A stretch of DNA of 64,000 nt from assembly GCA_036496285.1 (NCBI GenBank), contig DASXLI010000024.1, positions 37,125 to 101,124 on the forward strand. The letters are read 5' to 3'. Positions 1 through 25,204 of the stretch are shown here, one piece after another (the first letter of the stretch is position 1; each line of letters opens with the position of its first letter). Source of the DNA: Candidatus Binatia bacterium. GTDB taxonomy: Bacteria; Desulfobacterota; Binatia; UTPRO1. Under the pieces are notes generated by a model. The model was not told the origin of the DNA and did no database searches. It was given only the letters and a program-made list of their open reading frames with translations. The translations under genes were made by a program, and so were the position numbers.

Positions 1-592
1 GAGCGACTGCGGCGCCTCGACGAACAACGCGTCTGCCCCCGCCTCGCGATACGCGCGCGCCCGTGCGATCGCCTCTTCGAGCCCGATCGCCTGTCGCGCA
101 TCGGTCCGCGCCACGATGAAGCAGTCCGCGTCCGCCCGCGCCCGCACGGCGGCCCGGATCTTCTGCACCTGCTCCTCGACCGGAATCACCCGCTTCCCGC
201 GCATGTGCCCGCAACGCTTCGGCCACACCTGATCCTCGAGAAAGACCCCCGCCGCCCCCGCGTGCACCACCTCTTCCACCGTGCGCATGACGTTCAGCGC
301 GTTCCCATACCCGGTATCCACGTCCACGATCACCGGACACGCGACCCCTCGACAGATCCGCCGCGCCGCCTCCACGATGTCGGTCTGCGTCAGCACCCCG
401 AAGTCCGGCTCCCCGAGATACGTCGCGCTCACGCTGTACCCCGACACGAACAACACCTCGAACCCCGCCCGAGCCGCCACCCGCGCCGACAACGCATCGA
501 ACACCCCCGGCATCACCAGGGGCGCCCCACCCTGCAACCGCGAACGAAGCTCATCAGCCCGATTCGAATTGGCGATCATGCCAACTCGATAA
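1..592 (-). CDS. PEP mutase / isocitrate lyase superfamily protein (methylisocitrate lyase- or carboxyvinyl-carboxyphosphonate phosphorylmutase-like). Partial: the C-terminus runs off the window start.
   Basis: Reverse-strand translation from the ATG at 592 gives MIANSNRADELRSRLQGGAPLVMPGVFDALSARVAARAGFEVLFVSGYSVSATYLGEPDFGVLTQTDIVEAARRI...VIVDVDTGYGNALNVMRTVEEVVHAGAAGVFLEDQVWPKRCGHMRGKRVIP, the typical ICL/PEPM fold signature. The ORF track does not list it because it lacks a stop codon inside the window. Confidence 0.7.
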
Positions 593-6201: not shown

Positions 6202-6864
6202 TCACTCGAGCACGAGCTGCTCGAACAGCATCCAGCCGGCCACGGTGACAATCACGTCGAACGTCGCCAGCACGCGGAGCCACACCCCCGCGCTCGCCGC
6301 CGGGCCGCCGGACAGGACGATGCGGCTTGCCTCGACGGCGCAGATGACGACCGGCACGAGGAGCGGCAACACGAGAAGCGGCAGCAGCAGCTCGCGCGCG
6401 CGCAAGCGCACTGAGATCGCGGCGAACAGCGTCGCGAGCGCCGAGAAGCCGATCAGCCCGAGCCCGTTCACGAGCAGGAGCTCGACCGGCGACGCGGCCA
6501 CCGGCACGCCGAGCACGAGCCCGAGCAGCAGGATAAGCACGACGTCGGCGATGGCGAGGACCACCAGGTTCGCGACGAGCTTGGCCGCGAAGATCGCGCC
6601 GCGGTCGACGGGCGCGAGCAGGAGCCCGTACCACGCGCCGCTCTCGCGCTCCACGAGGAACGTGCGCTGCACGCCGAGCAGGCCGGCGAAGATCAGCGTG
6701 ACCCACAGGACCGCGGGCGCGGCGCCGCGTGCGCCGTCGGGATCGAGCGCGAAGGTGAAGGTCAGCAGGATCAGGACGACCAGCATGACGAGGCTCGCGA
6801 GCGCCTCCCGCGTGCGCATCTCGAGCAGCAAGTCCTTGCGCAGGATGGGCCAGAGGGAGCGCAT
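6202..6864 (-). CDS. ccmB: Heme exporter permease CcmB
   Basis: A 220-aa polytopic membrane protein (MRSLWPILRKDLLLEMRTREALASL...) typical of CcmB. Its start lies 3 nt after the ccmA stop. Confidence 0.8.
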   Translation of the reverse strand: MRSLWPILRKDLLLEMRTREALASLVMLVVLILLTFTFALDPDGARGAAPAVLWVTLIFAGLLGVQRTFLVERESGAWYGLLLAPVDRGAIFAAKLVANLVVLAIADVVLILLLGLVLGVPVAASPVELLLVNGLGLIGFSALATLFAAISVRLRARELLLPLLVLPLLVPVVICAVEASRIVLSGGPAASAGVWLRVLATFDVIVTVAGWMLFEQLVLE

Positions 6865-6866
6865 GC

Positions 6867-7574
6867 CTAGGCCGCCACCGCGCCGGTGATGCGGCGGTAC
6901 GCCTCGTGGAACGCGCCGAGCTCGCCCGCCGTGCGAGTCGCCTGCCAGGCCACACGACCATCGTGCAGGATCATGGCCCGGTCGGCAATCGCGAGGCCGC
7001 GCTCGAAATCGTGGGTCGCGACGATCACCGTGCGGCCGTCCGCATGCGACGTGACGAGGAGGTCCGAAAGCAGATCGGCCGCCGCGGCGTCGAGCGCGCT
7101 CCACGGCTCGTCGAGCAGGAGGAGGTCGGGTGCGTGCAACAGCGCACGGGCGAGCGCCAGGCGCTGTTCCATGCCGCGCGAGAAGGCGCGCACCGGCCGC
7201 GTGCCCGTGCCGGCGAGGCCCACACGCGTGAGCCATTCCGCCGCGATCCGCTCGGGCTCGGGCAACGCATACAGTCGGGCGTAGAACGCGAGATTCTCAC
7301 TCGCGCTGAGATCCGGGTAGAGGAAGCTCTGGTGCGATACGACGCCGATGCGGCGCCGCGTGCTCGCCTCGCGCTCGAGCGAGCCGAAGAGGCGGAGCGA
7401 GCCGGCCGTCGGCGCGTAGATGGTCGCGCAGAGGCGCAGCAAGGTGCTCTTCCCCGCCCCATTCGGGCCGAAGAGGACGAGCGTCTCCCCGGCGTCGACC
7501 CGCAGCGTGACGTCGCGCAGCACACGCGTGCGGCCGAACGCCTTGCCGAGCGACTCGGCCTCGACGACGCTCAT
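6867..7574 (-). CDS. ccmA: Cytochrome c biogenesis ABC ATPase CcmA
   Basis: It has Walker A (GPNGAGKST), the signature FSRGMEQR, Walker B (LLLLDEP) and an H-loop (ATHD). Confidence 0.8.
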   Translation of the reverse strand: MSVVEAESLGKAFGRTRVLRDVTLRVDAGETLVLFGPNGAGKSTLLRLCATIYAPTAGSLRLFGSLEREASTRRRIGVVSHQSFLYPDLSASENLAFYARLYALPEPERIAAEWLTRVGLAGTGTRPVRAFSRGMEQRLALARALLHAPDLLLLDEPWSALDAAAADLLSDLLVTSHADGRTVIVATHDFERGLAIADRAMILHDGRVAWQATRTAGELGAFHEAYRRITGAVAA

Positions 7575-7668
7575 GCGTCGGAAATACCGAACGCTGTTCG
7601 AGAAGGGAAGGCGCGATCCATCAGATCCATCGCGGCGCGAGGCGTGAGCCGCGGCCGTGAAGCGGCCG

Positions 7669-7947
7669 CTAGCGCCGGTCCAGCGCCGCGAGGGCGGCGA
7701 GCGCTCGATCCTCGTAGGTGCGGCGCAGGGTCGCATAGTCCTCGTCGGAGAGCTTGCCCATCTGCAGGTCGAACTCCGCCTCTTTGATCGCGGCGTAGGC
7801 GAGGTCGCGCTCCTTCTCGAGCCGGTAGCGCTCGGGGTCGCCGGACGGGGACGGCGGCACGATGGCGCCGCGCAGGAGCGGCGCGGCGACGGCCCACGCG
7901 ACCGAGGCGACGATCGCAAGCCCGGCGGCGTACCAGTACGACGTCAC
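7669..7947 (-). CDS. Small single-TM protein of unknown function inside the ccm operon, with a GTG start
   Basis: A GTG lies 1 nt after the ccmH stop. The product is VTSYWYAAGLAIVASVAWAVAAPLL (TM) followed by a charged helical tail (ERYRLEKERDLAYAAIKEAEFDLQMGKLSDEDYATLRRTYEDRA). It has no Cys and no TPR. The track ORF (7669..7989) starts at an ATG inside ccmH. Confidence 0.35.
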   Translation of the reverse strand: MTSYWYAAGLAIVASVAWAVAAPLLRGAIVPPSPSGDPERYRLEKERDLAYAAIKEAEFDLQMGKLSDEDYATLRRTYEDRALAALAALDRR

Positions 7948-7948
7948 G

Positions 7949-8347
7949 TCACGCGTCCCAGCGGTCGAGCTCGGCCTCGAGACGGGCACGGAGCTTCGGG
8001 TCGTCGGCGGCAGGCGCCGGGGGCTTGACCGTGTCCTGCTGCCGCCGCCAGCGCCGCGTCAGGATCACGATCAGCATCGTCGAGAGCAGGACCACGGCGA
8101 ACGGCGTCACCCAGGCGACGATGTTGAAGCCGCTCGTCGTCGGCGCCGAGAGGATCTTCTCGCCGTACTTGCCGGAGAAGTACGAGAGGACCTCCTCGCC
8201 CGTCTTCCCGAGCGCGAGCTGCGACGCGATCTCCTGCTTCAGTGGGATGCCGGAGGGGCACTGCAGATGGTTGCAGGCGTGCACCGTCAGGCCACAGCCG
8301 CACTGACACGTGAGCGCCTCCTCGAGATCGGTCTGCGACGCGTTCAC
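7949..8347 (-). CDS. ccmH: Cytochrome c-type biogenesis protein CcmH/CycL
   Basis: It has an LTCQCGCGLTVHACNHLQCP (LRCxxC-type) motif followed by a TM segment. The GTG start overlaps the ccmF TGA stop (GTGA). Confidence 0.75.
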   Translation of the reverse strand: MNASQTDLEEALTCQCGCGLTVHACNHLQCPSGIPLKQEIASQLALGKTGEEVLSYFSGKYGEKILSAPTTSGFNIVAWVTPFAVVLLSTMLIVILTRRWRRQQDTVKPPAPAADDPKLRARLEAELDRWDA

Positions 8348-10332
8348 GCGAACGCGCGTCCCTCGACGGCGAGCGCCGCGGCGAGCGCGCGCTGCTCCGC
8401 GGCGGTCGGCATCATGACGATCATCGTGCCGAGCACCATCGTGATGCCGCCGAGCCACAGCCAGACGACCAGCGGGTTGATGAACACCTGCAGCGTCATG
8501 AGCCCGGACTGGTCGTCGTAGCTGCCGAGCACGAGATAGAGGTCCTCCCACAGCGTCGTGCGCAGCGCGATCTCCGTCGTCGGCTGCTGCTGGCGCTTGT
8601 AGAAGCGCTTCTCCGGATACATCGTCGTGAGGACCTTGCCGCCGCGCGCGACCGTGATCTCTGCCAGCATCGACGCCGTATGCGGCGTGTCCTCGTTGCG
8701 GATGCCCTGGTACGTGAGGGTGTAGCCGCCGACCTCGACGGAATCGCCGGGGTGCATCGAGTGCTGCTCCTCGATGCGGAACGCCGCCGACGCCGCGATG
8801 CCGACGAACGCCATCACCACCCCGATGTGGACAATGTAGCCGCCGTACCGCCTGCGGTTCTTGTTGACGAGGTGCGCGAGCGCGGTGACGGGCGGCTCGC
8901 CCATCAGCGCCTGGCGCGCCCGGGTGCCGCGGTAGAACTCGAGCACGATCGTCGTGAGCACGAAGCCGGCGAGCGAGAAGCAGACGAGCGCGTAGTAGTG
9001 GCGCACGCCGGCGGCGAAGAGGCCGAGGCCTGCAGCGAAGCCGATCGCGAGCGGCATGATGAACGCGCGGCGCAGGTTGCGGGCGCTGGCGCGCCGCCAG
9101 GCGATCACCGGCCCGACCCCGGTCATGAAGAGCAGCGCAAGGCCGAGCGGGGCGTTCACCTTGTTGAAGAACGGCGGCCCGACCGTGATCTTGATGCCAC
9201 GCACCGCCTCCGAGATGACCGGGAAGATGGTGCCCCAGAAGGTGGCGAACGCGATGCCCACCAGCAGCAGGTTGTTGAAGAGGAACGCCGCCTCGCGCGA
9301 CAGGAACGAGTCGATCTCGTTGGCGCTGCGCAGGAGCGGCCGGCGGATGACCACGAGGGTGAGCGAGACTGCGATCACCGTGGTGAGGAAGCCGATGAAG
9401 TACGGCCCGAGCCCGGACTGCGTGAACGAGTGCACCGAGGAGACGACGCCGCTCCGGGTGAGGAAGGTGCCGAAGATGGTCAAGGTGAAGGTGAGCAGCA
9501 CCAGCACCATGTTCCACATCTTCAGCATGTTGCGTTTCTCCTGGATCATCACCGAGTGGAGGAACGCGGTGCACGCGAGCCACGGCATGAACGCAGCGTT
9601 CTCGACCGGATCCCACGCCCAGTAGCCGCCCCAGCCCAGCACCTCGTAGGCCCAGCGGCCGCCGAGCATGTTGCCGACGGAGAGGAAGAACCAGGCGAAG
9701 AGCGTCCAGCGCCGGGTCGTCCGGATCCACACGTCGCCGAGGCGGCCACTCGCGAGCGCGGCGATCGCGAACGCGAACGGCACCGAGCAGCCGACGTACC
9801 CGAGGTAGAGCGACGGCGGGTGGATCATCATCCAGTAGTTCTGCAGGAGCGGGTTGAGATCGGCCCCTTCGCGCGCCGGCACCGGCAGCCGCTGGAACGG
9901 GTCGGTGATGAAGACGAGGAGCCCGAGGAAGAACACCGCCGTCGTCATCATCGTGGCGGTGACGTACGGCATGAGCGCCTCGTTGCGGTCGCGGTTCTGC
10001 AGGTGCACCAGCGACGACATGCTGGTGAGGATCAGCGTCCAGAACAGCAGTGAGCCCTGCTGTCCGCCCCAGAGCGCCGCGACGGTGTAGTAGGTCGGCA
10101 GCGTCGACGACGAGTACGCGGCGACGTACTCGAGCGAGAAATCGTGCTGCAGGAGCGCGCGCAGCAGCACCGCGGCGGCGAGCACGACGAGGCCGTGCAC
10201 GATGTACGCCGCGGCACGCCCCGAGGCGACCAGGTCGGCACGCCGGCGGCGCGCGCCGAACACGGAGACCACCGTCGCATACACCGCAGCGAAGAGGGCC
10301 AGCCGCAGCCCGAGAACGCCGAGCTCGATCAT
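8344..10332 (-). CDS. ccmF: Cytochrome c-type biogenesis heme lyase CcmF
   Basis: A 662-aa polytopic protein with the WWD motif (WGGYWAWDPVEN) and the conserved His residues of the CcmF/NrfE family. Confidence 0.9.
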   Translation of the reverse strand: MIELGVLGLRLALFAAVYATVVSVFGARRRRADLVASGRAAAYIVHGLVVLAAAVLLRALLQHDFSLEYVAAYSSSTLPTYYTVAALWGGQQGSLLFWTLILTSMSSLVHLQNRDRNEALMPYVTATMMTTAVFFLGLLVFITDPFQRLPVPAREGADLNPLLQNYWMMIHPPSLYLGYVGCSVPFAFAIAALASGRLGDVWIRTTRRWTLFAWFFLSVGNMLGGRWAYEVLGWGGYWAWDPVENAAFMPWLACTAFLHSVMIQEKRNMLKMWNMVLVLLTFTLTIFGTFLTRSGVVSSVHSFTQSGLGPYFIGFLTTVIAVSLTLVVIRRPLLRSANEIDSFLSREAAFLFNNLLLVGIAFATFWGTIFPVISEAVRGIKITVGPPFFNKVNAPLGLALLFMTGVGPVIAWRRASARNLRRAFIMPLAIGFAAGLGLFAAGVRHYYALVCFSLAGFVLTTIVLEFYRGTRARQALMGEPPVTALAHLVNKNRRRYGGYIVHIGVVMAFVGIAASAAFRIEEQHSMHPGDSVEVGGYTLTYQGIRNEDTPHTASMLAEITVARGGKVLTTMYPEKRFYKRQQQPTTEIALRTTLWEDLYLVLGSYDDQSGLMTLQVFINPLVVWLWLGGITMVLGTMIVMMPTAAEQRALAAALAVEGRAFA

Positions 10333-10360
10333 CCGCGTGCGCCCGCGGTGCGGAGCGCCG

Positions 10361-10801
10361 TCACGACTTCGGTGCCTCGGCTGGACGCGGGGCCTCCGCC
10401 TCGTGCGGCACCTCGGCCTCGTACTTCGACGGGCAGCTGGTCATGAGGGTCTTCGCGTGGAACACGCCCTCGCGGGCGTATGTGCCCTCGACGATGACGT
10501 CGCGGCCCTCGGCGAACATGTCGGGCAGGACGCCGTTGTACTGCACGTCGACACCGTCGGTGTTGTCGAAGTTGGCGAGACGAAAGCCGAGATCGAGCGT
10601 GCCGGCATTCCACCGCATGCTGTCGGCGGCGACGCGTCCCGCGACCCGCACGCCCTCGCCGGCGACGGCCGAGCGCTTCGACAGGAACTCGTCGATCGTG
10701 AGGTAGTAGACCGACGTCTCGCGGATGCCGGTGTAGACGAGGTAGGAGACGGCCGCCACGATGATGGCGGCGCCAATGATGAAGCGGCGGTTCTTGCGCA
10801 T
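10361..10801 (-). CDS. ccmE: Heme chaperone CcmE, variant with a CxxxY heme-binding motif
   Basis: It has an N-terminal TM anchor and an OB-fold body. Its C-terminal ...FHAKTLMTSCPSKYEAEV aligns with E. coli ...LAKHDENYTPPEV, with Cys replacing the heme-binding His. Confidence 0.85.
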   Translation of the reverse strand: MRKNRRFIIGAAIIVAAVSYLVYTGIRETSVYYLTIDEFLSKRSAVAGEGVRVAGRVAADSMRWNAGTLDLGFRLANFDNTDGVDVQYNGVLPDMFAEGRDVIVEGTYAREGVFHAKTLMTSCPSKYEAEVPHEAEAPRPAEAPKS

Positions 10802-15848: not shown

Positions 15849-16538
15849 ATGGGACGACCGAGTCTCGCCGAGCCGCGCCGCCGGCAGATCGTCGACGGCC
15901 TGCGCACCGCGATCGTGAAGCACGGCCTCGCCGACGCCTCGGTGCAGCGCATCGCCGGCTACGCCGGCCTGCCCGCCGGCCTGGTCCATCACTACTTCGA
16001 CTCGAAGGAAGATCTACTGATCGCCACGGTCGATCAGGTCGTCGAGGACGCGCGCGAGCCCATCAAGGCCGAGCTCGACGTCCTCGATCCCGAGCGCGCC
16101 CTCGAGCGCGCGCTCGACTTCCTCTTCCTCGAGGTGCCAGCCGACCGCGACCGCAGCATCCTCTTCGAGGAGATCGCCGTCGCCGCGCTCCGGCGCCCGC
16201 AGCTGCGCCGGCGCCTGGCGGATCTGTCCGCCTACATGACGAACGAGGTCACGGCGCTGCTCGATCGCCTGCCCGATCGCGCGCGCCAACACGACGCCAA
16301 CATCGATCTCGCCACCATGGTGCTGTGCCTGCTCTACGGAGCCGACGCGCAGCTCCTTTCCGATCCCCACGCCATCCACCCGCGACGTCTCCGCCGGTTC
16401 GCCGGCGAGCTGGTCGCTCGTTTTCGAGGAGTGTCCAATGGAAAGGCTGATGCCCGGGCAACGCCGCATGATCGAGAAGTTCGAAGTGATCGAGCACGTC
16501 GACGAGGGACAAATCGCCGCGCTACGCGAGCGCACTAA
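15849..16538 (+). CDS. TetR family transcriptional regulator
   Basis: It has an N-terminal HTH (QIVDGLRTAIVKHGLADASVQRIAGYAGLPAGLVHHYFDSKEDLL). Its odd C-terminal 35 aa overlap the next gene. Confidence 0.75.
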   Translation: MGRPSLAEPRRRQIVDGLRTAIVKHGLADASVQRIAGYAGLPAGLVHHYFDSKEDLLIATVDQVVEDAREPIKAELDVLDPERALERALDFLFLEVPADRDRSILFEEIAVAALRRPQLRRRLADLSAYMTNEVTALLDRLPDRARQHDANIDLATMVLCLLYGADAQLLSDPHAIHPRRLRRFAGELVARFRGVSNGKADARATPHDREVRSDRARRRGTNRRATRAH

Positions 16539-17511
16539 CGTCGCGGTCCCGCTGGCGCTGCAGTGGACCTGGGAGTACGGCTCCGAGGTCGAGGAGCTGC
16601 GGCAGCTCTACGAGCGCGGCAAGCGCTCGCAGTGGGACGCCGAGACCGATCTCGACTGGTCGATCCCGTTTCCGCGCGAGGAGTGGTTCCTGCCGAAGGA
16701 GGGCTCGTCGCTGCTCGCGGGCGTGCTCGCCACCATCGGCGCCGACGACGCCACCTGCCGCGAGGCCGCGTGGGACGAGTTCGCGCATACGATGTCGCAG
16801 CTCCTGCACGGCGAGCAGGCGGCGCTCCAGCTCTGCGGGCAGCTCACCAACGCCTGCCCGACCATGGACCAGAAGTGGTACGCCGGCTCGCAGGTGATCG
16901 ACGAGGTCCGTCACGTCGAGGTGATCTCGAAGTTCCTGGCGCGCAAGATGGGCACGCTCTACCCGGTGAGCCCGACCATCAAGTTCCTGCTCGACAAGCT
17001 CCTCGAGGCGCCCACCTGGAAGCTCAAGACGCTCGGCATGCAGTGCCTGTTCGAGGGCGTCGCGGTCGGCATCTTCGACATCATCAAGACGATGACGACC
17101 AACCCGCTGCTGAAGGAGATGCTGCGCAAGGTCGAGCTCGACGAGTCGCGCCACGCGGCCTTCGGCATCCTCACCATGCGCCGCCTGGTCGAGGACGCGA
17201 CCCCCGAGGAGATGATCCAGTTCGAGGACTTCGCGTTCGAGGTGCTCGAGGCGCTGAACGCCAACCAGCAGCTCGACATGCTGCACGACCTCGCGCCCAA
17301 GTACGGCGTCGACCCCGAGGCCTGCGTGCGCGTCATGCACAGCCTGCCGAACTGGCACGACCTGAACGCCGAGGTCTACATGCACACGGTGATGCCGAAC
17401 CTCTGCCGGCTCGGCCTCGTCACCGAGCGCACCGAGGAGAAGTACCGCAAGCTCGGCATCCTCTCCGACACGCGCACCGCGCCCCGGAGCGAGCTGCCGC
17501 TGTCTGCCTGA
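16438..17511 (+). CDS. Ferritin-like diiron-carboxylate protein (putative oxygenase or desaturase-like)
   Basis: Repeated E...ExxH motifs are present (HGEQAALQL, DEVRHVEV, ELDESRHAAFG). A strong RBS (GAGGAG) lies 6 nt before the ATG at 16438. Confidence 0.6.
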   Translation: MERLMPGQRRMIEKFEVIEHVDEGQIAALRERTNVAVPLALQWTWEYGSEVEELRQLYERGKRSQWDAETDLDWSIPFPREEWFLPKEGSSLLAGVLATIGADDATCREAAWDEFAHTMSQLLHGEQAALQLCGQLTNACPTMDQKWYAGSQVIDEVRHVEVISKFLARKMGTLYPVSPTIKFLLDKLLEAPTWKLKTLGMQCLFEGVAVGIFDIIKTMTTNPLLKEMLRKVELDESRHAAFGILTMRRLVEDATPEEMIQFEDFAFEVLEALNANQQLDMLHDLAPKYGVDPEACVRVMHSLPNWHDLNAEVYMHTVMPNLCRLGLVTERTEEKYRKLGILSDTRTAPRSELPLSA

Positions 17512-17633: not shown

Positions 17634-20492
17634 TCACGAGCAACTGAGGCGCTGGGCGCTCCCCCGACAGCGCGGCCGCGCCGCGCTCGACGCGCCCCAG
17701 TGGGCCGTGGCGCACTCGTCCACCGCGCCGAAGCGGATCGCCAGATCGACCGGTCCCGCGACCGGAAGCAGCGGGGCGCCGGCGAAGCGCAGATCGAACG
17801 TCAGCCGTCCGGCAACCTGCGACGACTGATCGACGATCGTGAGCCGTCGCAACCCGCCGAGCGCGGCGCTCGGGTCGTCGAAGCGCCAGCGTTTGCCCGA
17901 GACGTTCGTCGTCCACCCGGCGCCGCCCGGCACCGTGACGTCGAGGACCCCGTCGATGACGATGCGGATGCCGTTGCCCGGCGGATCGACGCCGATCCAG
18001 GGCCGCGGGATGAGCGCCCGCCCGACGACATGCATGCTGCCGCCCGCACCGACCCGTAGGCGCGCGCGCTCGATCGAGAAGCCGCTCGCGCACGTACCGC
18101 CGTCGCCCGGCGTGGCGCTCGCGCTCGGCACGGGCGCGGTCGGCGTGGCACCGCCGGCTGGCGAGGTGGGCGTGGCCGTCCGCGTGGCCGCCGGGGTCGG
18201 CGTTCGCGTCGCCATGGGCGTGACGGTGCGCGTGGCGACCGGCGTCGGGGTCTTCGTCGCGACCGGGGTGGCGGTGCGTGTCGCGACGGGGGTCGCGGTG
18301 CGGGTCGCACCGGCCCCGGGCGTCGCCGTCGGAGCGCCGCTCTGCTGCTGCTTCCACTGCGCCAGGAGGCCGTGCAGCGCCTCCGGCTCGTTGGTCGGCG
18401 GCGGGGCACCGGTCTGGCTGAGCGTGTTGATGCCGTGGCAGCTCGCGCAGACGCGGATCTCCCCCGCCTGCATGCTGAGCCAATTGCGCTCGCGGACGAC
18501 CGGCCCGCCCGCGGCGTCGGTGAGCTGCCACGACAGCGCGCGGCGCGCCGGCACGAGCGCCGCGAACGAGCCGTCCGACGCGATCGTCACCGCACCGAGG
18601 GGGCCGCCTGCCGCATGCGAGACGTTCGGCTCGTGCATCGGCCGCGCGAGCAGGCGGCGGCCGGGCTGCGGGCTCACCGGGTTGCCGTAGCCGCGTACGG
18701 CGTCGCCCTGGAAGATCTGCAGATACGAGACGTCATAGGCGGTGCCGCCCGTCGCGATCGACGCGACCCCCCCCGGCACACGCAGATTGAAGGGCTGCGA
18801 GCGATCGGCACGGTCGCGCTGCGTGACGTTGCGGCTCACGATCAGCGCGAGGCCGTTGTTGCGGAGATAGTCCTGGAACGCCGCGACGTCGACGGCCTCC
18901 TGCGCGAAGACTGACGCCTCGATCGACGGCAGGGACTCCTGGCGCGGCGCCGGCACGGAACGGGCGACGACCTCGACCGGGTCGAGCTCCCAGAGCATGC
19001 CGTTGTACGAGGCGAGCGTGTCGGGCGTCCACCAGCTGACGCTCTTCTGGATGCCGGCCGTGAGGCTCGCGAGCGGCGCGTAGAAGGCACCCTGCTTGCT
19101 GAGGATCTTCAGGCGGTACTGATACGACCAGTTCGGCGCGGCGGTGCTGCCGACGTTCTGCAGCTGCCCGGTCGCTGTCGTGTGCGCGGCCAGCAGGGTG
19201 CCGTCCGTCATCGGCAGCGGGTTGCGGAAGTAGCCGGTCTGCTGCGGCACCTGCGCGTCGTTGCCGGTCGGCGTGACCGCGGTGAGCGTCATGTCCTCGG
19301 CGTTGATCGACGGCGCGCCCGTGAGGCGCATCAAGGTGCCGCCGGCGCCGGTGCCGAACTCGGGCGCGTCGGTCGCGAGGAAGTCGCCCGGCACCCGCGG
19401 GTCCTCCCGCAGCTGCAGGAGGCCGCCGTCGCCGCGGATGTCGAGCTGGTTCGCGTGCAGGCTCGGGTCGACGTAGTAGGTCAGGTTCGGGTCGGCGACG
19501 AAGCTGCCGTCGGTGTAGGAGCCGCCGAGCTCGTGCCGCCCGACGTGGTTCAGGGTCTCCTCGGCGGTACCGTCCTCGTTCAGCTCCCACGGGAAGAAGT
19601 GATTGAAGGTATGCAGCGAGACCGCGGGCGAGTACGCGGGATCCCCCTGCGAGCGCGGCTCGGGAAAGATCTCGGCGCCGGCGAGCGTCGTCGTCGTCGC
19701 GGCGTTGGCCGCCTCGCTCGCCCACGTGAAGGACTGGTAGTTGGCGACGACATCCGGCGCGTCGCCCTGCTGGTCGCGCTGCAGATGGTCCCACTTGGTG
19801 AAGACGACGCGGCCGAAGGAGTCGATCGACGGCGTGAAGCTGCCACTCGGCGAGTGCTCGAGCAGCTCGAGGTCGCCCGTCGCCTCGTCGAGCGCGTAGA
19901 TCCCGGCGACCGTGTAGGCGGACTCGTACTCGTCGCGCTGCGGGTAGAGCTGCGGAGCGCCGCTCGGCGGCCGGTCGGACGTGAAGAGGATGCGCCCGTC
20001 GGTCGCGTAGATCGGCGAGACGTTGTTGAAGCTCGCCGGCTGGTTGGCGATCCGACGGATCGTCGCAGTCGCGCCCTGCGCGAGGCCGGTCACCTCGTAG
20101 ATCTGCCAGTGGTACGTGGCAACCTGGTACTGCTGCGTCGGAGCGCCTACGACCATCGCGAAGAGCGCCTTCGTGCCGCTCCAGTGCACGCACGGCTCGC
20201 GCACCGCGATCGCGTTCGCGCCCTGCATGCCGGCGTTGCCGAATCCCCCCTCCTGCGTGAGGAAGCGGAGCGACCCGTCGGGATAGCGAATCACGAGATC
20301 GCCACCGCGCGGCGCGGACTCCATCGTCGCGAGGTGATTGCCGAACGTGCTCGTCAGCGCACCGAACCCGCCGACCGGCATCTGGGTGACGAAGAGTACA
20401 GGGTTGGACGGCGCGACCTGCGCCGGTGCCGTGCACGGGTGCGCGACCACCACGGCTGCCACAAAGCATAGTACCAGGGTCCGGCGTCGCAT
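17634..20492 (-). CDS. Large secreted protein (~953 aa): beta-propeller-like N-terminal region, a single CxxCH heme c motif, a Thr/Pro/Ala linker and a C-terminal beta-rich domain
   Basis: The true start MRRRTLVLCFVAAVVVAHPCTAPAQVA at 20492 (GAGGAG RBS) is followed by a signal peptide. RVCASCHGIN is at about residue 770. The linker is ...TATPVATRTATPVATKTPTPVATRTVTPMATRTPTPAATRT... The track ORF is over-extended at its 5' end. Confidence 0.7.
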   Translation of the reverse strand: MRRRTLVLCFVAAVVVAHPCTAPAQVAPSNPVLFVTQMPVGGFGALTSTFGNHLATMESAPRGGDLVIRYPDGSLRFLTQEGGFGNAGMQGANAIAVREPCVHWSGTKALFAMVVGAPTQQYQVATYHWQIYEVTGLAQGATATIRRIANQPASFNNVSPIYATDGRILFTSDRPPSGAPQLYPQRDEYESAYTVAGIYALDEATGDLELLEHSPSGSFTPSIDSFGRVVFTKWDHLQRDQQGDAPDVVANYQSFTWASEAANAATTTTLAGAEIFPEPRSQGDPAYSPAVSLHTFNHFFPWELNEDGTAEETLNHVGRHELGGSYTDGSFVADPNLTYYVDPSLHANQLDIRGDGGLLQLREDPRVPGDFLATDAPEFGTGAGGTLMRLTGAPSINAEDMTLTAVTPTGNDAQVPQQTGYFRNPLPMTDGTLLAAHTTATGQLQNVGSTAAPNWSYQYRLKILSKQGAFYAPLASLTAGIQKSVSWWTPDTLASYNGMLWELDPVEVVARSVPAPRQESLPSIEASVFAQEAVDVAAFQDYLRNNGLALIVSRNVTQRDRADRSQPFNLRVPGGVASIATGGTAYDVSYLQIFQGDAVRGYGNPVSPQPGRRLLARPMHEPNVSHAAGGPLGAVTIASDGSFAALVPARRALSWQLTDAAGGPVVRERNWLSMQAGEIRVCASCHGINTLSQTGAPPPTNEPEALHGLLAQWKQQQSGAPTATPGAGATRTATPVATRTATPVATKTPTPVATRTVTPMATRTPTPAATRTATPTSPAGGATPTAPVPSASATPGDGGTCASGFSIERARLRVGAGGSMHVVGRALIPRPWIGVDPPGNGIRIVIDGVLDVTVPGGAGWTTNVSGKRWRFDDPSAALGGLRRLTIVDQSSQVAGRLTFDLRFAGAPLLPVAGPVDLAIRFGAVDECATAHWGASSAARPRCRGSAQRLSCS
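18130..18340. repeat. Short tandem-repetitive DNA encoding the TATPVATR linker of the upstream large protein
   Basis: There are repeated gtcgcgac/ggggtcg/gcggtgcg units. On the opposite strand they appear as GVAVRVATGV repeats. Confidence 0.6.
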
Positions 20493-20680
20493 CGCGTCTC
20501 TCCTCGCGCGTTTCCGCGGAATCTGCCGGCAGAGCGCAAAGGCTTGCGCGCCGGCCGCGCAGGAAAAGTGCAAAGAGCGTTCCGGAGCGGCTGCTGGCGC
20601 GCGAATGCTCACACGCCGTGTCGAGTAGTTGTCCACGACGCGCCACTCGACTAAGCGTCGCGCTGAAGGAGGTTCGCGCG

Positions 20681-21586
20681 ATGAATTCTCGATGGCCGAT
20701 CGCTGTCGTCGCCATGATCCTTCTCGCGGTCGCCTCGCCGGCGAGCTCCCAGCAGACGACGGAGACGAGCGAGACGACGGACGTCTCACACTCCACCGCC
20801 CAGCACCTCGAAGCCTTCCTGACGCGATGGGAGATCAGCCTCGGCGGCCAGATCGGCGCGCCGAAGGGATTCGTCAAGGTCGGCGAGTTCGACCGCTCCG
20901 GCGACAAGCTTCGCCTCAACAACGACCTCAAGATCGACACGTTCGAGGTCGCGAGCCTCGGTGCCGGCTTCCACATCACCGACCGCGACGTCATCCGCGC
21001 CCGCTTCGACTACACCTTCCTCTACGGCACGACGACCCGCGGCGACGAGACGGCGTTCAACGGTGCGCTGCTGGCGGCCGGCGAGGCCATCCGCACCCGG
21101 CCGGTCTTCACCCGCATCACCGGCCTCTACGAGCACGAGTTCATCCACGAGCCGAGCGGCGCACTCCTTGCCGCCGGCGGTGGCGTCACGTTCGTCTACC
21201 TGCACTTCAAGCTGCATGGGACGCTCGCGCCCGACACCGTGGGCCACGAGACCCAGGAGGACTTCTACGCGCAGGAGCTGCCGGTCTGGTTGCTGGCGTT
21301 GCACGGCGAGTATCCGATCAGCGAGCGCGTCCACCTGCTCGGCGCCGTCGACGGCGGCTTCCTGCCGAAGGTCGACAGCCTGCGGTCCGAAGGCGGCACG
21401 GTGAAGCTCTCGCAGGGCCACGCCGACGTCTTCGCCGGCGTGCGCGTCGCCGTCACCCCCCAGATCTTCGCCGATGCCGGCTATACCTACACGTACTTCT
21501 CGCAGCATGAGACGAGCCACGAGGACGACAACAAGTTCCTCTTCCTCGGCCACGCCTTCGGCTTCGGCATGACCTACCGCTTCTGA
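20681..21586 (+). CDS. Outer-membrane beta-barrel protein (301 aa) of unknown family
   Basis: An RBS (GAAGGAGG) lies 7 nt before the ATG. It has a signal peptide (MNSRWPIAVVAMILLAVASPASSQQ), alternating amphipathic strands, and a C-terminal ...FGFGMTYRF ending in Phe. Confidence 0.7.
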   Translation: MNSRWPIAVVAMILLAVASPASSQQTTETSETTDVSHSTAQHLEAFLTRWEISLGGQIGAPKGFVKVGEFDRSGDKLRLNNDLKIDTFEVASLGAGFHITDRDVIRARFDYTFLYGTTTRGDETAFNGALLAAGEAIRTRPVFTRITGLYEHEFIHEPSGALLAAGGGVTFVYLHFKLHGTLAPDTVGHETQEDFYAQELPVWLLALHGEYPISERVHLLGAVDGGFLPKVDSLRSEGGTVKLSQGHADVFAGVRVAVTPQIFADAGYTYTYFSQHETSHEDDNKFLFLGHAFGFGMTYRF

Positions 21587-21867
21587 GCCCCTTCCCCGCC
21601 TCGCCGATCGGTCGGCATGGCGCACATACCGGGAGGCGTGCCGCGCCGCGCCAACATTTTCTGGGGTGCTTTCGAGAAGACAGGACGTACTTGCCTACGA
21701 AAGGGCACACTCCTACACAATCATACCAGTCAGCGTTTCCCGTACCGGAAAGCGTGCGAACCACGTAATGACTTGCTGGCACGACAGAGGAACGGAAGAG
21801 CGCCCGTCAACCCCTTTCCTCGGGCGAGAATCAACGCACCGCAGTCAACCACTGGAGGAAGGGTCAT

Positions 21868-24800
21868 GGCATCCAGCTCGAAGCGCGCCGTCGTCGGCGC
21901 CGCCGCGCTCACCGCATTTCTGACGTTCGCAACGATCGCGCTCGCCGCAGCGCCCAACAGGTGCCTGAGCGGCCAGACACGCTGCGCGAGCCAGAAGGCG
22001 CAGGGTCTGCTGCAGTGCCACATCACGGCGGAGAGGGACGGCACTGCCGTCGATCCCGCGTGCACCGGGCGCGTGATGACGCGCTTCAGCGGCACTGCCG
22101 ACCAGCCGAGCTGCTTCGAGATGATCGGGGCGGGAGAAGATCGCAATTCCCAGGCGATCTGCGCCACGCACGACGACACGAACGCGATCGAGCAGAAGGT
22201 CGACGCGTTCGTGGAGGACGTCGTGTCGGGTATCGATCCCGACTTCCAACATGCTTCCCCGCCGAACTCGTGCACCTCGGGCAAGAAGAAGTGCGTCGCG
22301 GACAAGCTGAAGGACATCCTGCGATGCCACGAGCAGGCGATCCGAAGCGGCCACCACGTCGATCGTGACTGCGTCGCGAGGGCCCGCGCGAAGTTCGACG
22401 GCAACCGAGGCTGCTTCGCCAGGCTCGAGGCGAGGGAGAACCCGAGTAGCCCCTCGACCATCTGCAAGAGTCACGGTGACACCGCGGCCGTCGAGCAGAA
22501 GGTCGATGCCTTCATCACCGACCTGCTCTGCGAGCTCGGGTCGCCGACGGTGACGTGCGGAACGCCGACGCCGCCGCCCGTCCCGACGCGAACCAAGACA
22601 CCGACGCCGACCCGCACGCCGACGCCGACACGGACCGCGACGCCGGCAGCCACCGCGACCCCCACGCGAACCGCCACCGCCGCGCTGACCGCCACCAGGA
22701 CCGCAACTCCCGCGCCGACCGCGACGCCGACGAGGACCGCGACACCCGCGGCCACCGCGACGCCGACCAGGACAGCGACGCCGGTGAGCACCGCCACCTC
22801 GACGGCAACGACGGTGCCCACGACGACGGCGACGAGAACCGCCACGCCGCTACCGACCGCCACGCCGACGGTCACTTCCACGCCCGCGCAGACGGCAACC
22901 AGGACGGCGACGCCGGCGAGTACCGCGACCTCCACCGCGACCGCGACCGCGGTGCCCACGACGACCGCCACCGCGACGGCGACGGCGACCGCAACCACGG
23001 CCGCCACGGCAACCGCGACCAGAACCGCCACCCCGCTGCCGACCGCGACGCCGACGGTCACCTCGACACCCGCGCAAACAGCGACGAGAACGGCGACGCC
23101 GGCGACCACCGCCACGTCCACAGCGACGGCGACAGCAGCCGCAACGGCAACCGCAACGAGAACCGCCACCCCGCTGCCGACCGCGACACCGACCGTCACC
23201 GCGACGCCCGCGCTGACGGCGACTGCGACGAGAACCGCGACACCGACCGTCACCGCGACACCCGCACTGACGGCGACTGCGACGCGGACCGCCACGCCGA
23301 CCGTCACCTCGACACCGACTGTCACGGCCACCGCCGTGTTGACGGCGACCGCCACCCGGACCGCCACGCCGACCGTCACCGCAACGCCAGTGCTGACGGC
23401 GACGGCCACGAGAACGGCGACTCCGACGGTCACTGCAACGCCCGTCCTGACCGCGACGGCGACGGTGACCGCGTCGCCGACCCGCACCGCCACGCCCACG
23501 GTCACCGCGACGCCGGTGCTCACGGCCACCGCAACACGCACCGCGACGCCGACCGCCACCCTCACGCGCACCGCGACTCCGACGCCGACCGCCACCTCGA
23601 CGCCGGTCTCGCTCTGCGGCAATGGCGTCCTCGATGCGGGCGAGGACTGCGATGCCAGCGCCGGCGCCAGCGGCACGTGCGCTGCGCACTCGAACACGGA
23701 CCCCGCGTTCACCTGCACCGCTACGTGTCAGTGCGCCTGCCCGACGTTCGTCGAGTTCACTGGCATCCCGCGCTCCGCATGCGATGTCGGCACCAACGAA
23801 GGCCGCCTGTGCACCACGAACGCCGATTGCCCCGGCGGTAGCTGCGTGCCGCATCTCGAGGGCGCGCTCGATACCGGCTGGACCGGCAACGGCCACGACT
23901 CGACGATCGTGAGCGACGGCAAGATCACGGTCGGCGTATCGGGTTGCGCCGGCTCGAGCCGTCCGTGCGGAACTTGCTCGCTGGTCGGTCCGGTCGACAA
24001 CCTGAACGCGGCGACGTACCCGAGCGCGGTAGGCCCGAGCAAGGACCTGAACGATCACCGCTGCAGCAACAACACGTCGGTCCCGTGCAGCAACAACACG
24101 CCGTGCTTCCAGCAGTGCCTCGGTGGTACCAACGACGGCAATGCCTGCACGGCCGCATCGGCCTGCCCCGGTGGTGTCTGCCCCGCGGCGGGCACGTGCG
24201 AATACGCGTTCGGCACCTACCTGCCGCTCGCGGCCGGCGGCGTGTCGACCTGCGTCGGCAACCAGATCAACGGCAACATCACCGGCACGGCCAACATCGA
24301 GAGCGGCGCGTCGGCGACCACTGCCAAGCTGACGTCGCGCGTGTACAACGGCATCACGCTTTCGAACCCGTGTCCGCAGTGCAACGGCGACACCAATACC
24401 AACGACGGCGCCCGCGGCGGCACCTGCTCGGGCGGCCAGCGCGCAGGCAAGGCCTGCGACGTCAATGGCTCATCGCCGAACGCCTCCTTCGGGAAGACGA
24501 GCCTCGATTGCCCGCCGCTCACCGGCGCGCTCATCGCGACGCTCGGGATCGACCTGAGTAACACGACGGGCTCCAAGGTGCGGACGCTCTCCACGGCCAA
24601 CCCGCTCTGCCGCGCCCCAGGGTGGACCACGCAGCGCTGCCAGTGCGATACGTGCGCTGACCTCGCCGCCGAGGCCTGTTCGACGAATGCCGATTGCCCC
24701 GCAGGCCACCCCTGCGGCGTCAAGCGCTGCACCGGCGGTACCAACGGCGGCGCGCCGTGCACCTTGGCGAGCGAGTGCCCGGGCAGTGCATGCAGCACGC

Positions 24801-25204
24801 CGGGTGTTCAGACGGCGGGCAATCAGTGCGACGGCGCGTCGGGCGATTGCGTTGCTGATGCCGGGACGCCGAGCCCCAATGACCGCATCTGCTCCTCCGG
24901 TCCGCTCGAGAGCTTCTGCGGCCCGGTCGAGACGTTCCGTGGTTGTACGGGCGACAGCGACTGCACGTTCGCGGGCGACACCTGCAGTGTGACGCGCTTC
25001 CGCGATTGCTTCGACAACGGCATCCCCGGCGAGCTGATCACCGCGACCGGCTTGCAGAGCGCGCCGGTGAACGACCAGTCCGATCCGACGCTCGCCGCGC
25101 TCTTCTGCGTCGGGCCGACGAGCTCCGGGTCGATCAACTCGGCCGCGGGTCTCCCAGGTCCGGGACGCCTCGAGCTACCGGGTCACGCCCACGGGCTGCC
25201 GTAA
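21868..25204 (+). CDS. Giant secreted Cys-rich repeat protein (~1112 aa): duplicated N-terminal Cys module, ~350-aa Thr/Ala/Pro low-complexity region, and a C-terminal region with Myxococcus-type cysteine-rich repeats
   Basis: An RBS (GGAGGAAGGG) precedes the signal peptide. Two homologous ~110-aa modules are present ([20 protein letters not shown]... and [20 protein letters not shown]...). [14 protein letters not shown] and many CPGG/CxxC motifs follow after residue ~590. Confidence 0.8.
22560..23615. repeat. About 1 kb of imperfect tandem repeats (ACC/ACG/GCC/GCG/CCG codons) encoding (T/A)(A/T)TP(T/V)... low-complexity sequence
   Basis: The repeated units gcgacgccgaccgtcacc, cgcaccgccacgcc and acggcgacg recur dozens of times. 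The region is in frame within the giant CDS and has no spacer-and-repeat architecture. Confidence 0.85.

Follow-up and report, generated by a model that had tools for sequence, protein, structure and literature searches.

A predicted secreted mono-heme c protein of the HZS_alpha superfamily in a Binatia bacterium, very distantly related to hydrazine synthase alpha

Introduction

The closest described system to the protein reported here is the alpha subunit of hydrazine synthase, HzsA (kuste2861; chains A and D of PDB 5C2V, from Kuenenia stuttgartiensis). In HzsA, an N-terminal six-bladed propeller is followed by a middle domain with a CxxCH motif and by a C-terminal class I cytochrome c domain that carries the bis-His heme alpha-II, and the subunit is accompanied by beta and gamma partners (propeller and diheme peroxidase-like). 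The heme of the middle domain, heme alpha-I, is catalytic and not an electron-transfer group (PMC12607021). It is ligated by Tyr591, four residues past the motif His, and the motif His itself binds zinc together with a Cys of the propeller (PMC12607021, PMC12758564).

Hagglund et al. argue that heme proteins already present in the periplasm gave rise to hydrazine synthase (PMC12758564). Non-anammox homologs of HzsA have been described, namely those of clades I to IV of Hagglund et al. 2025 (for example, in Syntrophobacter fumaroxidans, Aquisphaera giovannonii, and Opitutus terrae) and, as "hzs-like" genes, those in Phycisphaerae (PMC12758564, PMC10732223); published searches did not turn up any relative whose function is confirmed (PMC12758564). 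Metagenomic surveys counted genes with an HZS_alpha domain as hzsA, the diagnostic gene of anammox, and reported anammox potential in ten phyla (PMC11828985).

Here, we analyze a gene from a Candidatus Binatia bacterium, located in a 64-kb window (the whole stretch of DNA under study, 64,000 nucleotides). An earlier note on this window had pictured its product as a secreted protein of about 950 residues with a lone heme c motif, a Thr/Pro/Ala linker, and an extra C-terminal domain.

Results

Gene, export signal, and domain architecture

The features of the locus are collected in Table 1. The open reading frame codes for 952 residues and begins with a Sec-type signal peptide, in line with the secreted protein of about 950 residues proposed earlier, and the identical 952-residue sequence is already public, from public gene callers, as [quoted passage not shown] Cleavage is predicted after A-P-A and before Q. 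N-termini with the n-, h-, and c-regions of Sec signals were also found in 197 homologs. The MRRR start had led us to consider Tat export, which we ruled out since the RR pair is poorly kept (31 of the 197 homologs). A promoter and terminator scan of the locus returned nothing above chance.

Table 1. Features of the mono-heme protein gene and the nearby ccm cluster (window coordinates)
Feature	Position	Strand	Description	Basis
Complete coding sequence	17634..20492	-	952 aa plus stop codon (17634-17636)	ORF list and translation
Shine-Dalgarno-like GAGGAGAG	20498..20505	-	5 nt upstream of the ATG at 20492	Direct sequence reading
Sec-type signal peptide MRRRTLVLCFVAAVVVAHPCTAPA	20421..20492	-	aa 1-24	Sequence and homolog N-termini
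Six-bladed TolB/PD40-like beta-propeller	18963..20405	-	aa ~30-510	AlphaFold model
Helical hairpin, beta-sandwich "middle domain," and terminal helix	18339..18935	-	aa 520-718	PF18582, Foldseek
Pfam HZS_alpha (PF18582) match	18435..18599	-	aa 632-686	35.7 bits (cutoff 26.6), E 1.3e-8
CASCH, single predicted c-type heme attachment motif	18435..18449	-	C682, C685, H686	Sole CxxCH in the protein
Disordered T/P/A/R-rich linker	18096..18338	-	aa 719-799; T 26%, A 20%, P 16%	pLDDT 29-39
24-nt tandem array (8 aa) in the linker	18169..18314		6.1 copies, 69% matches	TRF
C-terminal beta-sandwich module	17637..18095	-	153 aa; C801, C927, C942, and C951 invariant	pLDDT 91
CcmE, CcmF, CcmA-like ABC protein, CcmB	6202..10801	-	6.8 kb from the 3' end of the gene

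The AlphaFold model is confident (pLDDT 84) and, together with the Pfam and Foldseek results, supports the architecture outlined in the earlier note, a propeller scaffold with one CxxCH, a linker, and an additional domain. The "about 750 aa" of beta-rich sequence are indeed beta-rich, and the model resolves them into a propeller, a helical hairpin (residues 523 to 545), and a beta-sandwich (548 to 682) followed by a single helix (704 to 717). The propeller carries long conserved loop insertions (residues 236 to 296 and 305 to 354), and the PF18582 match ends at the CxxCH. The tandem nature of the Thr/Pro/Ala linker is borne out at the DNA level by a repeat array. The C-terminal domain is a confidently predicted beta-sandwich, beta-rich as anticipated and somewhat shorter than the ~170 residues first estimated; no Pfam or NCBIfam family was found for it.

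A single, invariant heme motif

The protein contains exactly one CxxCH, as read previously, and shuffling its sequence produced such a motif in only 278 of 200,000 shuffles, a chance occurrence of 0.0014. The motif is invariant in three alignments and is kept by all 252 relatives whose match covers the site, each of which has exactly one CxxCH; the absence of the motif from homologs, named in the earlier note as the observation that would count against its reading, was thus not encountered. Around the motif, relatives share an extended signature, G-E-[IV]-R-x-C-x-x-C-H-G-[VIL]-N-x-x-[SD]-Q-x-G. The conserved CxxCH, the Sec-type export, and the presence of a Ccm system in the organism mark the protein as a putative c-type cytochrome, and the motif suggests that heme is covalently attached and ligated by the His. 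The Ccm system looks complete. Its genes lie near the locus (Table 1), at the distance of about 7 kb given by the earlier note, but every cytochrome c encoded in a genome depends on ccm, and the closeness is no evidence of a specific link.

The two Cys could alternatively form a disulfide, or the Cys pair and the His could bind a metal ion. That the motif His of hydrazine synthase alpha is on zinc and not on the heme iron (PMC12607021) tells us that this motif can act unusually in this fold, but both Cys of hydrazine synthase still hold the heme covalently. We consider a non-heme site very unlikely, given the exact heme-c spacing in 252 of 252 relatives, the export of the protein by the Sec route in an organism with a Ccm system, and the lack of a conserved Cys that could serve as zinc partner: C101, the sole other Cys of the mature core and hence the candidate equivalent, is kept in 32 of 53 relatives.

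The segment R-V-C-A-S-C-H-G-x-N-x-x-S-Q and the following helix show a weak alignment (E 0.57) to the N-terminal, heme-binding part of the class I fold in cytochrome c552 (PDB 1CNO). The class I model (Pfam PF00034, Cytochrom_C) is, however, failed by the protein, with 13.5 bits against a cutoff of 21.3. Only ~30 residues separate the motif from the end of the core, and since many homologs stop ~5 residues beyond the core helix, the Met-ligand half of the class I fold is missing; the remaining surroundings of the heme must come from the beta-sandwich and the propeller. The view that this is not a standard cytochrome family holds in that respect, but the family itself is already catalogued as PF18582.

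Relation to hydrazine synthase alpha

Both comparisons suggested in the earlier note, with hydrazine-synthase-alpha-like and with TolB-like propellers, proved apt. For the former, PF18582 scored above its gathering threshold, and a Foldseek search with the predicted structure returned 5C2V alpha first among PDB entries (E 3.9e-19, full-length alignment of 768 columns); all other matches were at 5e-6 or worse, which makes 5C2V alpha the best match of the modeled fold by 13 orders of magnitude. For the latter, the six blades are of the PD40 type (ATDGRILFTSDR), with a Pfam PD40 match near threshold. With TolB (PDB 1C5K), the blade fold alone is shared, at 13% identity: TolB, which serves the Tol-Pal system as a binding protein in the periplasm, has an N-terminal alpha/beta domain and neither heme nor middle domain, and the combination of that alpha/beta domain, a PD40 propeller, and a tol-pal cluster was not found here.

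The likeness to HzsA lies in the order of the domains, with the six-bladed propeller at the N-terminus and the CxxCH-bearing middle domain after it; identity is only 13 to 14%, and sequence profiles do not detect the relationship. Unlike HzsA, the protein has a Sec signal and extracellular accessory modules. Searches of all PDB sequences, by phmmer with the protein and by hmmsearch with profiles built from 53 close and 79 diverse relatives, gave only noise (a nucleoporin matching the linker, a cold-shock protein, and c552 at E 0.57), and the HzsA sequence of 5C2V was not detected pairwise. Since these sequence searches gave no residue-level alignment to 5C2V, we looked for an equivalent of Tyr591 by counting residues from the motif His. 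None of 252 relatives has Tyr at H+4 and 2 of 252 have it at H+5, and the Binatia protein reads H686-G-I-N-T-L.

These data bear on whether the gene codes for a genuine hydrazine synthase alpha, or for a cryptic anammox-like enzyme forming an N-N bond from hydroxylamine and ammonium, and so marks anammox potential in Binatia. The HZS_alpha match, the top-ranked fold, and the treatment of such genes as hzsA in some surveys (PMC11828985) speak for this possibility, which we nevertheless regard as extremely improbable. The NCBIfam equivalog hydrazine_alpha (NF052339) scored 9.7 bits (E 0.17) against a cutoff of 800, the Tyr591 equivalent is missing, and so are a second CxxCH and the heme alpha-II domain; no beta/gamma diheme partner turned up, either in the 64-kb window or across 83 loci of the family. 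In addition, carriers of the family include aerobic isolates such as Hydrogenophaga sp. A37, MI9, and RWCD_12 and many non-anammox phyla, and Hagglund et al. rejected an anammox function even for much closer homologs (PMC12758564). The protein is a very distant relative of hydrazine synthase alpha and not a hydrazine synthase.

With clades I to IV and the Phycisphaerae genes, the Binatia protein shares the propeller, the HZS_alpha domain, a predicted His-ligated heme c, and the lack of Tyr591 and Ser590; clades II and III are likewise devoid of the heme alpha-II domain (PMC12758564). Those homologs, however, were recovered through their pairwise resemblance to HzsA (bit scores of 80 to 200) and adjoin a fused beta-gamma diheme peroxidase-like homolog. 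In our case, a pairwise search did not link the protein to the HzsA sequence of 5C2V, and no such neighbor was found in the 83 loci; the protein therefore belongs to a more remote, stand-alone branch.

Conservation, fusion partners, and gene neighborhood

The family is large, comprising 1,412 representatives when clustered at 50% identity and spanning 586 genomic loci in many phyla, and is present in many soil and water bacteria; no plasmid-borne relative was found. PF18582 was matched by all 47 diverse relatives scanned, and the precomputed label is present on nearly all of the 120 closest homologs. Neither the family, catalogued in Pfam and discussed in the literature (PMC12758564, PMC10732223, PMC11828985), nor the exact protein, which is public as hypothetical, is new; the HzsA-like kind is known but uncharacterized. 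The copy in the window is an ordinary member.

Around 50 positions are invariant over the ~690-residue core among relatives of only 37 to 63% identity. Many of them are charged or polar (E133, D173, E188, D235, D240, E260, H316, E502, E507, R559, D563, R612, R613, D640, E668, R669, E678, and R680), and two long polar loops are very conserved, NHFFPWE.NEDGTAEETLNHVGRHE (residues 296 to 321) and VSRNVTQRDRADRQQPFNL (residues 552 to 570). This conservation is enzyme-like and matters for a non-catalytic role, in which the protein would transfer electrons as a cytochrome, soluble or at the surface, or would be a binding scaffold of the TolB type whose heme is structural or senses redox state or gas. 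One heme to which neither an electron donor nor an acceptor is linked suits a carrier or a sensor as well as an enzyme, a mono-heme protein lacking a partner domain is typical of electron carriers, and the weak resemblance of the motif region to c552 fits as well. We judge such a role distinctly unlikely, because the number of invariant positions is far above the usual need of a carrier or scaffold, no redox partner is conserved nearby, and the Met-loop half of a class I cytochrome is missing.

Extracellular modules are fused at the same position in different lineages and are interchangeable. T9SS sorting tails were found in 7 of 47 diverse members, and other modules among relatives are dockerin, Calx-beta, FG-GAP, fn3, BACON, PKD, CBM5/12, and CBM96/DNRLRE; no second redox domain was found in the 47 diverse members. 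The Binatia protein has no recognizable sorting signal. The fused modules suggest that members of the family probably end up outside the cell or at its surface.

All-against-all clustering of the flanking ORFs in the 83 loci revealed no conserved neighbor. The flanking clusters correspond to generic paralogous families (Ser/Thr kinases, histidine kinases, aldo-keto reductases, methyltransferases, and SDRs), none of them in more than 11 loci, and in a Pfam census of 90 same-strand adjacent ORFs no family was present in more than three. No cytochrome or peroxidase gene was found within 10 kb and no other multi-CxxCH ORF in the 64-kb window, where the only other ORFs with a heme motif code for a YacG zinc finger and for a protein of 102 residues. 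A GH44 glycoside hydrolase gene lies downstream on the same strand in three closely related Holophagaceae genomes, and a multiheme CytoC_RC-like gene lies on the opposite strand in four Thermoanaerobaculia genomes; both adjacencies are too narrow to generalize.

The modules and the GH44 gene relate to a further possibility, in which catalysis takes place in the propeller and the heme c acts as an internal relay for electrons: a polymer or sugar would be oxidized or cleaved, the electrons would pass to an external acceptor, and substrate binding would fall to the C-terminal module. Fungal PQQ pyranose dehydrogenase and cellobiose dehydrogenase work on this principle, with their catalytic domain, cytochrome, and CBM (PMC6881789). 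The parallel is an analogy in overall build alone, in that a six-bladed propeller of a secreted protein is combined with a heme domain, a flexible linker, and a module for binding; the fungal enzymes have heme b in a separate cytochrome domain and PQQ or FAD in the catalytic domain. A catalytic-looking propeller joined to a heme, a disordered T/P linker, and a binding module does resemble redox enzymes that are secreted and act on carbohydrates, CBM96/DNRLRE, CBM5/12, BACON, dockerin, and fn3 modules occur in relatives, and six-bladed PQQ sugar dehydrogenases are among the weaker fold matches. These dehydrogenases, however, match no better than other six-bladed propellers; no PQQ or other cofactor signature and no sequence relationship to the fungal enzymes were found, the census of 90 adjacent ORFs contained no enrichment of carbohydrate-active enzymes, and the GH44 adjacency is limited to the three Holophagaceae genomes. 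Moreover, the equivalent heme is the active site in the sole characterized relative (PMC12607021). We consider the relay unlikely.

Discussion

The reading that we favor, with about even confidence, is that the gene codes for a Ccm-matured enzyme with one heme c, which would function on its own outside the cytoplasm and belongs to the HZS_alpha domain-containing superfamily. In our working model, the Sec system would export the unfolded protein, and the System I Ccm machinery encoded nearby would join one heme to C682 and C685, with H686 as a normal axial ligand. The heme would be located where the beta-sandwich middle domain ends and would abut the top of the six-bladed TolB-like propeller, whose long conserved polar loops would close the other face of the heme to form a catalytic pocket. 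If so, the ~690-residue core would by itself constitute a heme enzyme, with a substrate outside the cytoplasm. By analogy with heme alpha-I of hydrazine synthase, a catalytic role seems preferable to that of an electron carrier. The linker and the 4-Cys beta-sandwich may be a lineage-specific, interchangeable module for tethering or binding, at the position occupied elsewhere by T9SS tails, dockerins, CBMs, and fn3 or Calx-beta domains.

The significance of these observations is family-wide, with nothing specific to the Binatia copy. The association of an HZS_alpha domain with a six-bladed propeller and a CxxCH is common in organisms without the features of hydrazine synthase, and the domain alone is therefore no marker of anammox. 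As for the stock of periplasmic heme proteins from which hydrazine synthase is proposed to have arisen, this branch is a natural candidate, being very large, stand-alone, and equipped with a single heme. We advance, as a speculative idea that we consider unlikely, that the family represents an unrecognized class of secreted or surface heme-c enzymes in many aerobic and facultative bacteria, acting on an extracellular substrate, and that hydrazine synthase alpha descends from the same stock. Were this the case, the activity might be an oxidative "auxiliary activity" on polymers or the extracellular turnover of hydroxylamine, NO, or peroxide, and the anammox alpha subunit would have been recruited from a widespread stock by a His-to-Tyr ligand swap and the addition of partner subunits. 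With ~1,400 clusters at 50% identity, ~50 invariant residues, extracellular targeting modules, and no known function, the family is a worthwhile target for biochemistry.

Gene, export and heme motif

The earlier note described a secreted protein with a single CxxCH, a tandem linker and an extra C-terminal domain, and this description holds for the minus-strand ORF of 952 codons listed in the table, whose nine cysteines include exactly one CxxCH, C682-A-S-C685-H686. A longer reading would begin at a GTG at 20789. The ATG at 20492 is the better start, since it sits 5 nt past GAGGAGAG, its translation opens with a typical Sec signal peptide, and public gene callers give exactly the same protein (P0001, [quoted passage not shown]). 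G+C is ~70% across the entire window, so the many overlapping ORFs count as shadows. In all homologue N-termini (n = 197), a short basic stretch leads into a hydrophobic core and then an AxA-like site, and a twin Arg, present in 31 of them, is not conserved; export is therefore of the Sec type, which cytochrome c maturation needs.

The CxxCH arises in 278 of 200000 shuffles of the protein and is invariant in alignments of 53 close homologues, 79 diverse representatives and 47 multi-domain relatives. Homologues lacking the motif had been named in advance as evidence against a heme site; among 268 family proteins examined, all 252 with a match extending over the site contain exactly one CxxCH, and the remaining 16 are fragments ending at or before it. 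The extended signature reads G-E-[IV]-R-x-C-x-x-C-H-G-[VIL]-N-x-x-[SD]-Q-x-G. A System I cytochrome c maturation cluster lies inside the window (6202-10801, minus strand), and a Pfam scan of the small ORFs between its genes (e.g., 7944-8309) gave zero matches. Since any cytochrome c needs a ccm cluster, this closeness is no evidence of a special link to the heme protein.

Features of the heme protein and its surroundings (nt, window positions; aa, heme protein residues)
Feature	Position	Strand	Basis
CcmB	nt 6202-7236	minus	
CcmA-like ABC protein (ATPase)	nt 6867-7919	minus	
CcmF	nt 8344-10332	minus	
CcmE	nt 10361-10801	minus	
TetR-family regulator	nt 15849-16538	plus	
AurF-like/R2-like diiron oxygenase	nt 16438-17511	plus	
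Heme protein ORF, 952 codons	nt 17634-20492	minus	ORF list and translation
24-nt tandem array in linker DNA, 6.1 copies	nt 18169-18314		TRF
CxxCH heme motif	nt 18435-18449	minus	sequence
OMP-like beta-barrel protein, 301 aa, signal peptide, ...GMTYRF C-terminal end	nt 20681-21586	plus	PF13505, 27.1 bits, slightly below the cutoff of 28.7
Secreted ~1110-aa protein	nt 21617-25204, likely start near 21866	plus	
Six four-stranded sheets, closed by N-terminal strand	aa ~30-510		DSSP of AlphaFold2 model
Helical hairpin	aa 523-545		DSSP of AlphaFold2 model
Beta-sandwich, last strand leading into CxxCH	aa 548-682		DSSP of AlphaFold2 model
Single helix	aa 704-717		DSSP of AlphaFold2 model
Linker, predicted disordered	aa 719-799		AlphaFold2 model

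Fold of the core and comparison with hydrazine synthase

The AlphaFold2 model, built with 53 homologues and read through its DSSP string, is confident (mean pLDDT 84, pTM 0.74, most of aa 30-718 above 90). Together with Pfam and Foldseek, it bears out the guess of a propeller-like scaffold carrying one heme motif: a six-bladed propeller is followed by a sandwich of the HZS_alpha type (PF18582) with the heme-c motif. About 50 residues, many of them charged, are invariant among relatives at 37-63% identity, and they cluster in the sandwich and in long loops of the propeller. The extent of this conservation makes a plain electron carrier or scaffold the less likely function.

Kinship with hydrazine synthase, for which the evidence is the Pfam domain and the order of the Foldseek matches, is remote, because identity to the alpha subunit (HzsA) is 13-14%, the Foldseek TM-scores are low (0.39/0.48), and family profiles run against PDB sequences did not retrieve 5C2V, the Kuenenia stuttgartiensis enzyme. 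The protein is not a hydrazine synthase: it scores 9.7 bits on the curated NCBIfam equivalog, versus a cutoff of 800 bits. Genuine HzsA uses the motif His as a zinc ligand and Tyr591, four residues on, as the heme ligand (PMC12607021, PMC12758564), whereas H686 is followed by G-I-N-T-L and a Tyr occupies H+4 in none and H+5 in two of the 252 family proteins. C101, the sole propeller Cys, is kept in 32 of 53 relatives. Unlike hydrazine synthase alpha, the protein has no second CxxCH and thus no heme alpha-II domain, and many relatives stop about five residues past the core helix. A beta/gamma partner is also absent, with no cytochrome or peroxidase gene within 10 kb; the only other CxxCH-bearing ORFs in the 64-kb window encode a YacG zinc finger and a 102-aa product. 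Real hydrazine synthesis by this protein is very unlikely.

Accessory modules

The ~690-aa core is a cassette. Many relatives consist of it alone (720-790 aa), and others carry N- or C-terminal modules, reaching 1634 aa. The Pfam domains added in 47 diverse relatives comprise T9SS sorting tails (7), Calx-beta (6), FG-GAP (4), fn3 (4), dockerin (3), BACON (2) and PKD (2), as well as CBM5/12, the chitobiase C-terminal domain and others; right-handed beta-helix, Big_5, TSP3 repeats and CBM96/DNRLRE occur in further relatives. All are of the secreted- or surface-protein type, and none is a second redox domain.

Binatia-type relatives have instead a T/P-rich linker and a ~150-aa beta-sandwich with four invariant Cys (C801, C927, C942 and C951) and a C-[RS] terminus. 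This 4-Cys domain, present in 82 of 172 extension segments, matched no Pfam or NCBIfam family and, across 1.3 Mb of retrieved DNA, always followed the core immediately. Large-database queries with it (17637-18101, minus strand; a single sequence and a 22-sequence profile) returned four to five short fragments and missed known full-length parents, so they are silent on other architectures. The nearby secreted ~1110-aa protein has two N-terminal Cys-containing repeats, a ~330-aa T/A/P/R tandem-repeat linker (many TRF arrays, 22562-23605) similar in style to that of the heme protein, and a Cys-rich stretch over its last ~570 aa; it had no Pfam or NCBIfam match.

Gene neighborhood

The OMP-like gene lies upstream and divergent, and the TetR gene and the diiron gene that it precedes (~100-nt overlap) lie downstream and convergent; both the OMP-like and the diiron gene are outside the heme protein's transcription unit. 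The OMP-like gene is not a conserved neighbor in other genomes, and a second Binatia genome has wholly different genes around its homologue. When the flanking ORFs of 83 loci were clustered, only big generic families were common, each at no more than 11 loci, and among 90 adjacent same-strand ORFs surveyed with Pfam, every family occurred in at most three. By these comparisons, the gene behaves as a unit of its own, without an operon partner.

Two lineages have local arrangements of their own. Holophagaceae MAGs (homologue locus L018, 6316-16732, plus strand; also L013, L012 and L009) place a core-only homologue between two same-strand genes, one for a large protein without a Pfam match and one for a 1541-aa GH44 glycoside hydrolase protein starting ~13-30 nt past the homologue, a hint, confined to this lineage, of a polysaccharide context. 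In four Thermoanaerobaculia MAGs (L036, 12269-13375, minus strand; L041, L051 and L059), the gene for a multiheme protein similar to the cytochrome c subunit of the photosynthetic reaction centre (PF02276) lies near the homologue, on the other strand and at a distance that varies.

Proposed function and significance

From the architecture, the invariant motif and ~50 invariant residues, the lack of partner genes and the extracellular fusions, we infer an extracytoplasmic heme enzyme that works on its own. In it, H686 would act as an ordinary axial ligand of the putative heme, the conserved loops would form a distal pocket, and the C-terminal module would be exchangeable and serve for tethering or binding. 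Hydrazine synthase sets a precedent: its heme alpha-I is catalytic and not an electron carrier (PMC12607021), which by analogy favors catalysis at the heme. The accessory modules favor a substrate that is extracellular or at the surface. The leading rival, suggested by analogy with secreted fungal dehydrogenases, is a catalytic propeller in which the heme would serve as a built-in electron relay.

The protein, itself already in public databases, is an ordinary representative of a superfamily that is catalogued but uncharacterized, and what is new locally comes down to the unannotated 4-Cys module. Searched exhaustively with HMMER, 1.84 billion cluster representatives yielded 1412 family representatives at E ≤ 1e-3, 790 at E ≤ 1e-10 and 385 at E ≤ 1e-30, and scanning one genome for each prokaryotic species confirmed at least 586 loci. 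Those listed come from Binatia, Myxococcota (Polyangiaceae, Kofleriaceae), Acidobacteriota (Holophagaceae, Thermoanaerobaculia, Vicinamibacteria), Pseudomonadota (including the isolates Hydrogenophaga sp. RWCD_12, MI9 and A37), Planctomycetota, Verrucomicrobiota, Bacteroidota/Ignavibacteria, Chloroflexota, Nitrospira and Bdellovibrionota; nearly all copies are annotated "hypothetical protein".

The wide spread and uncharted function of HzsA-like proteins are already in the literature. Hagglund et al. reported >600 structural matches named "HZS_alpha domain-containing protein", without a single confirmed function among them, and the loss of key catalytic residues in closer HzsA homologues (PMC12758564); Suarez et al. 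suggested that the enzyme family is wider and acts on other substrates (PMC10732223); and a cold-seep survey scored such genes as hzsA over ten phyla (PMC11828985). Our literature search found no paper tying Binatia to HzsA-like genes. The importance of the finding lies in the whole family and not in the Binatia copy: the family is a large gap in functional knowledge that also gives rise to false "hzsA" calls.
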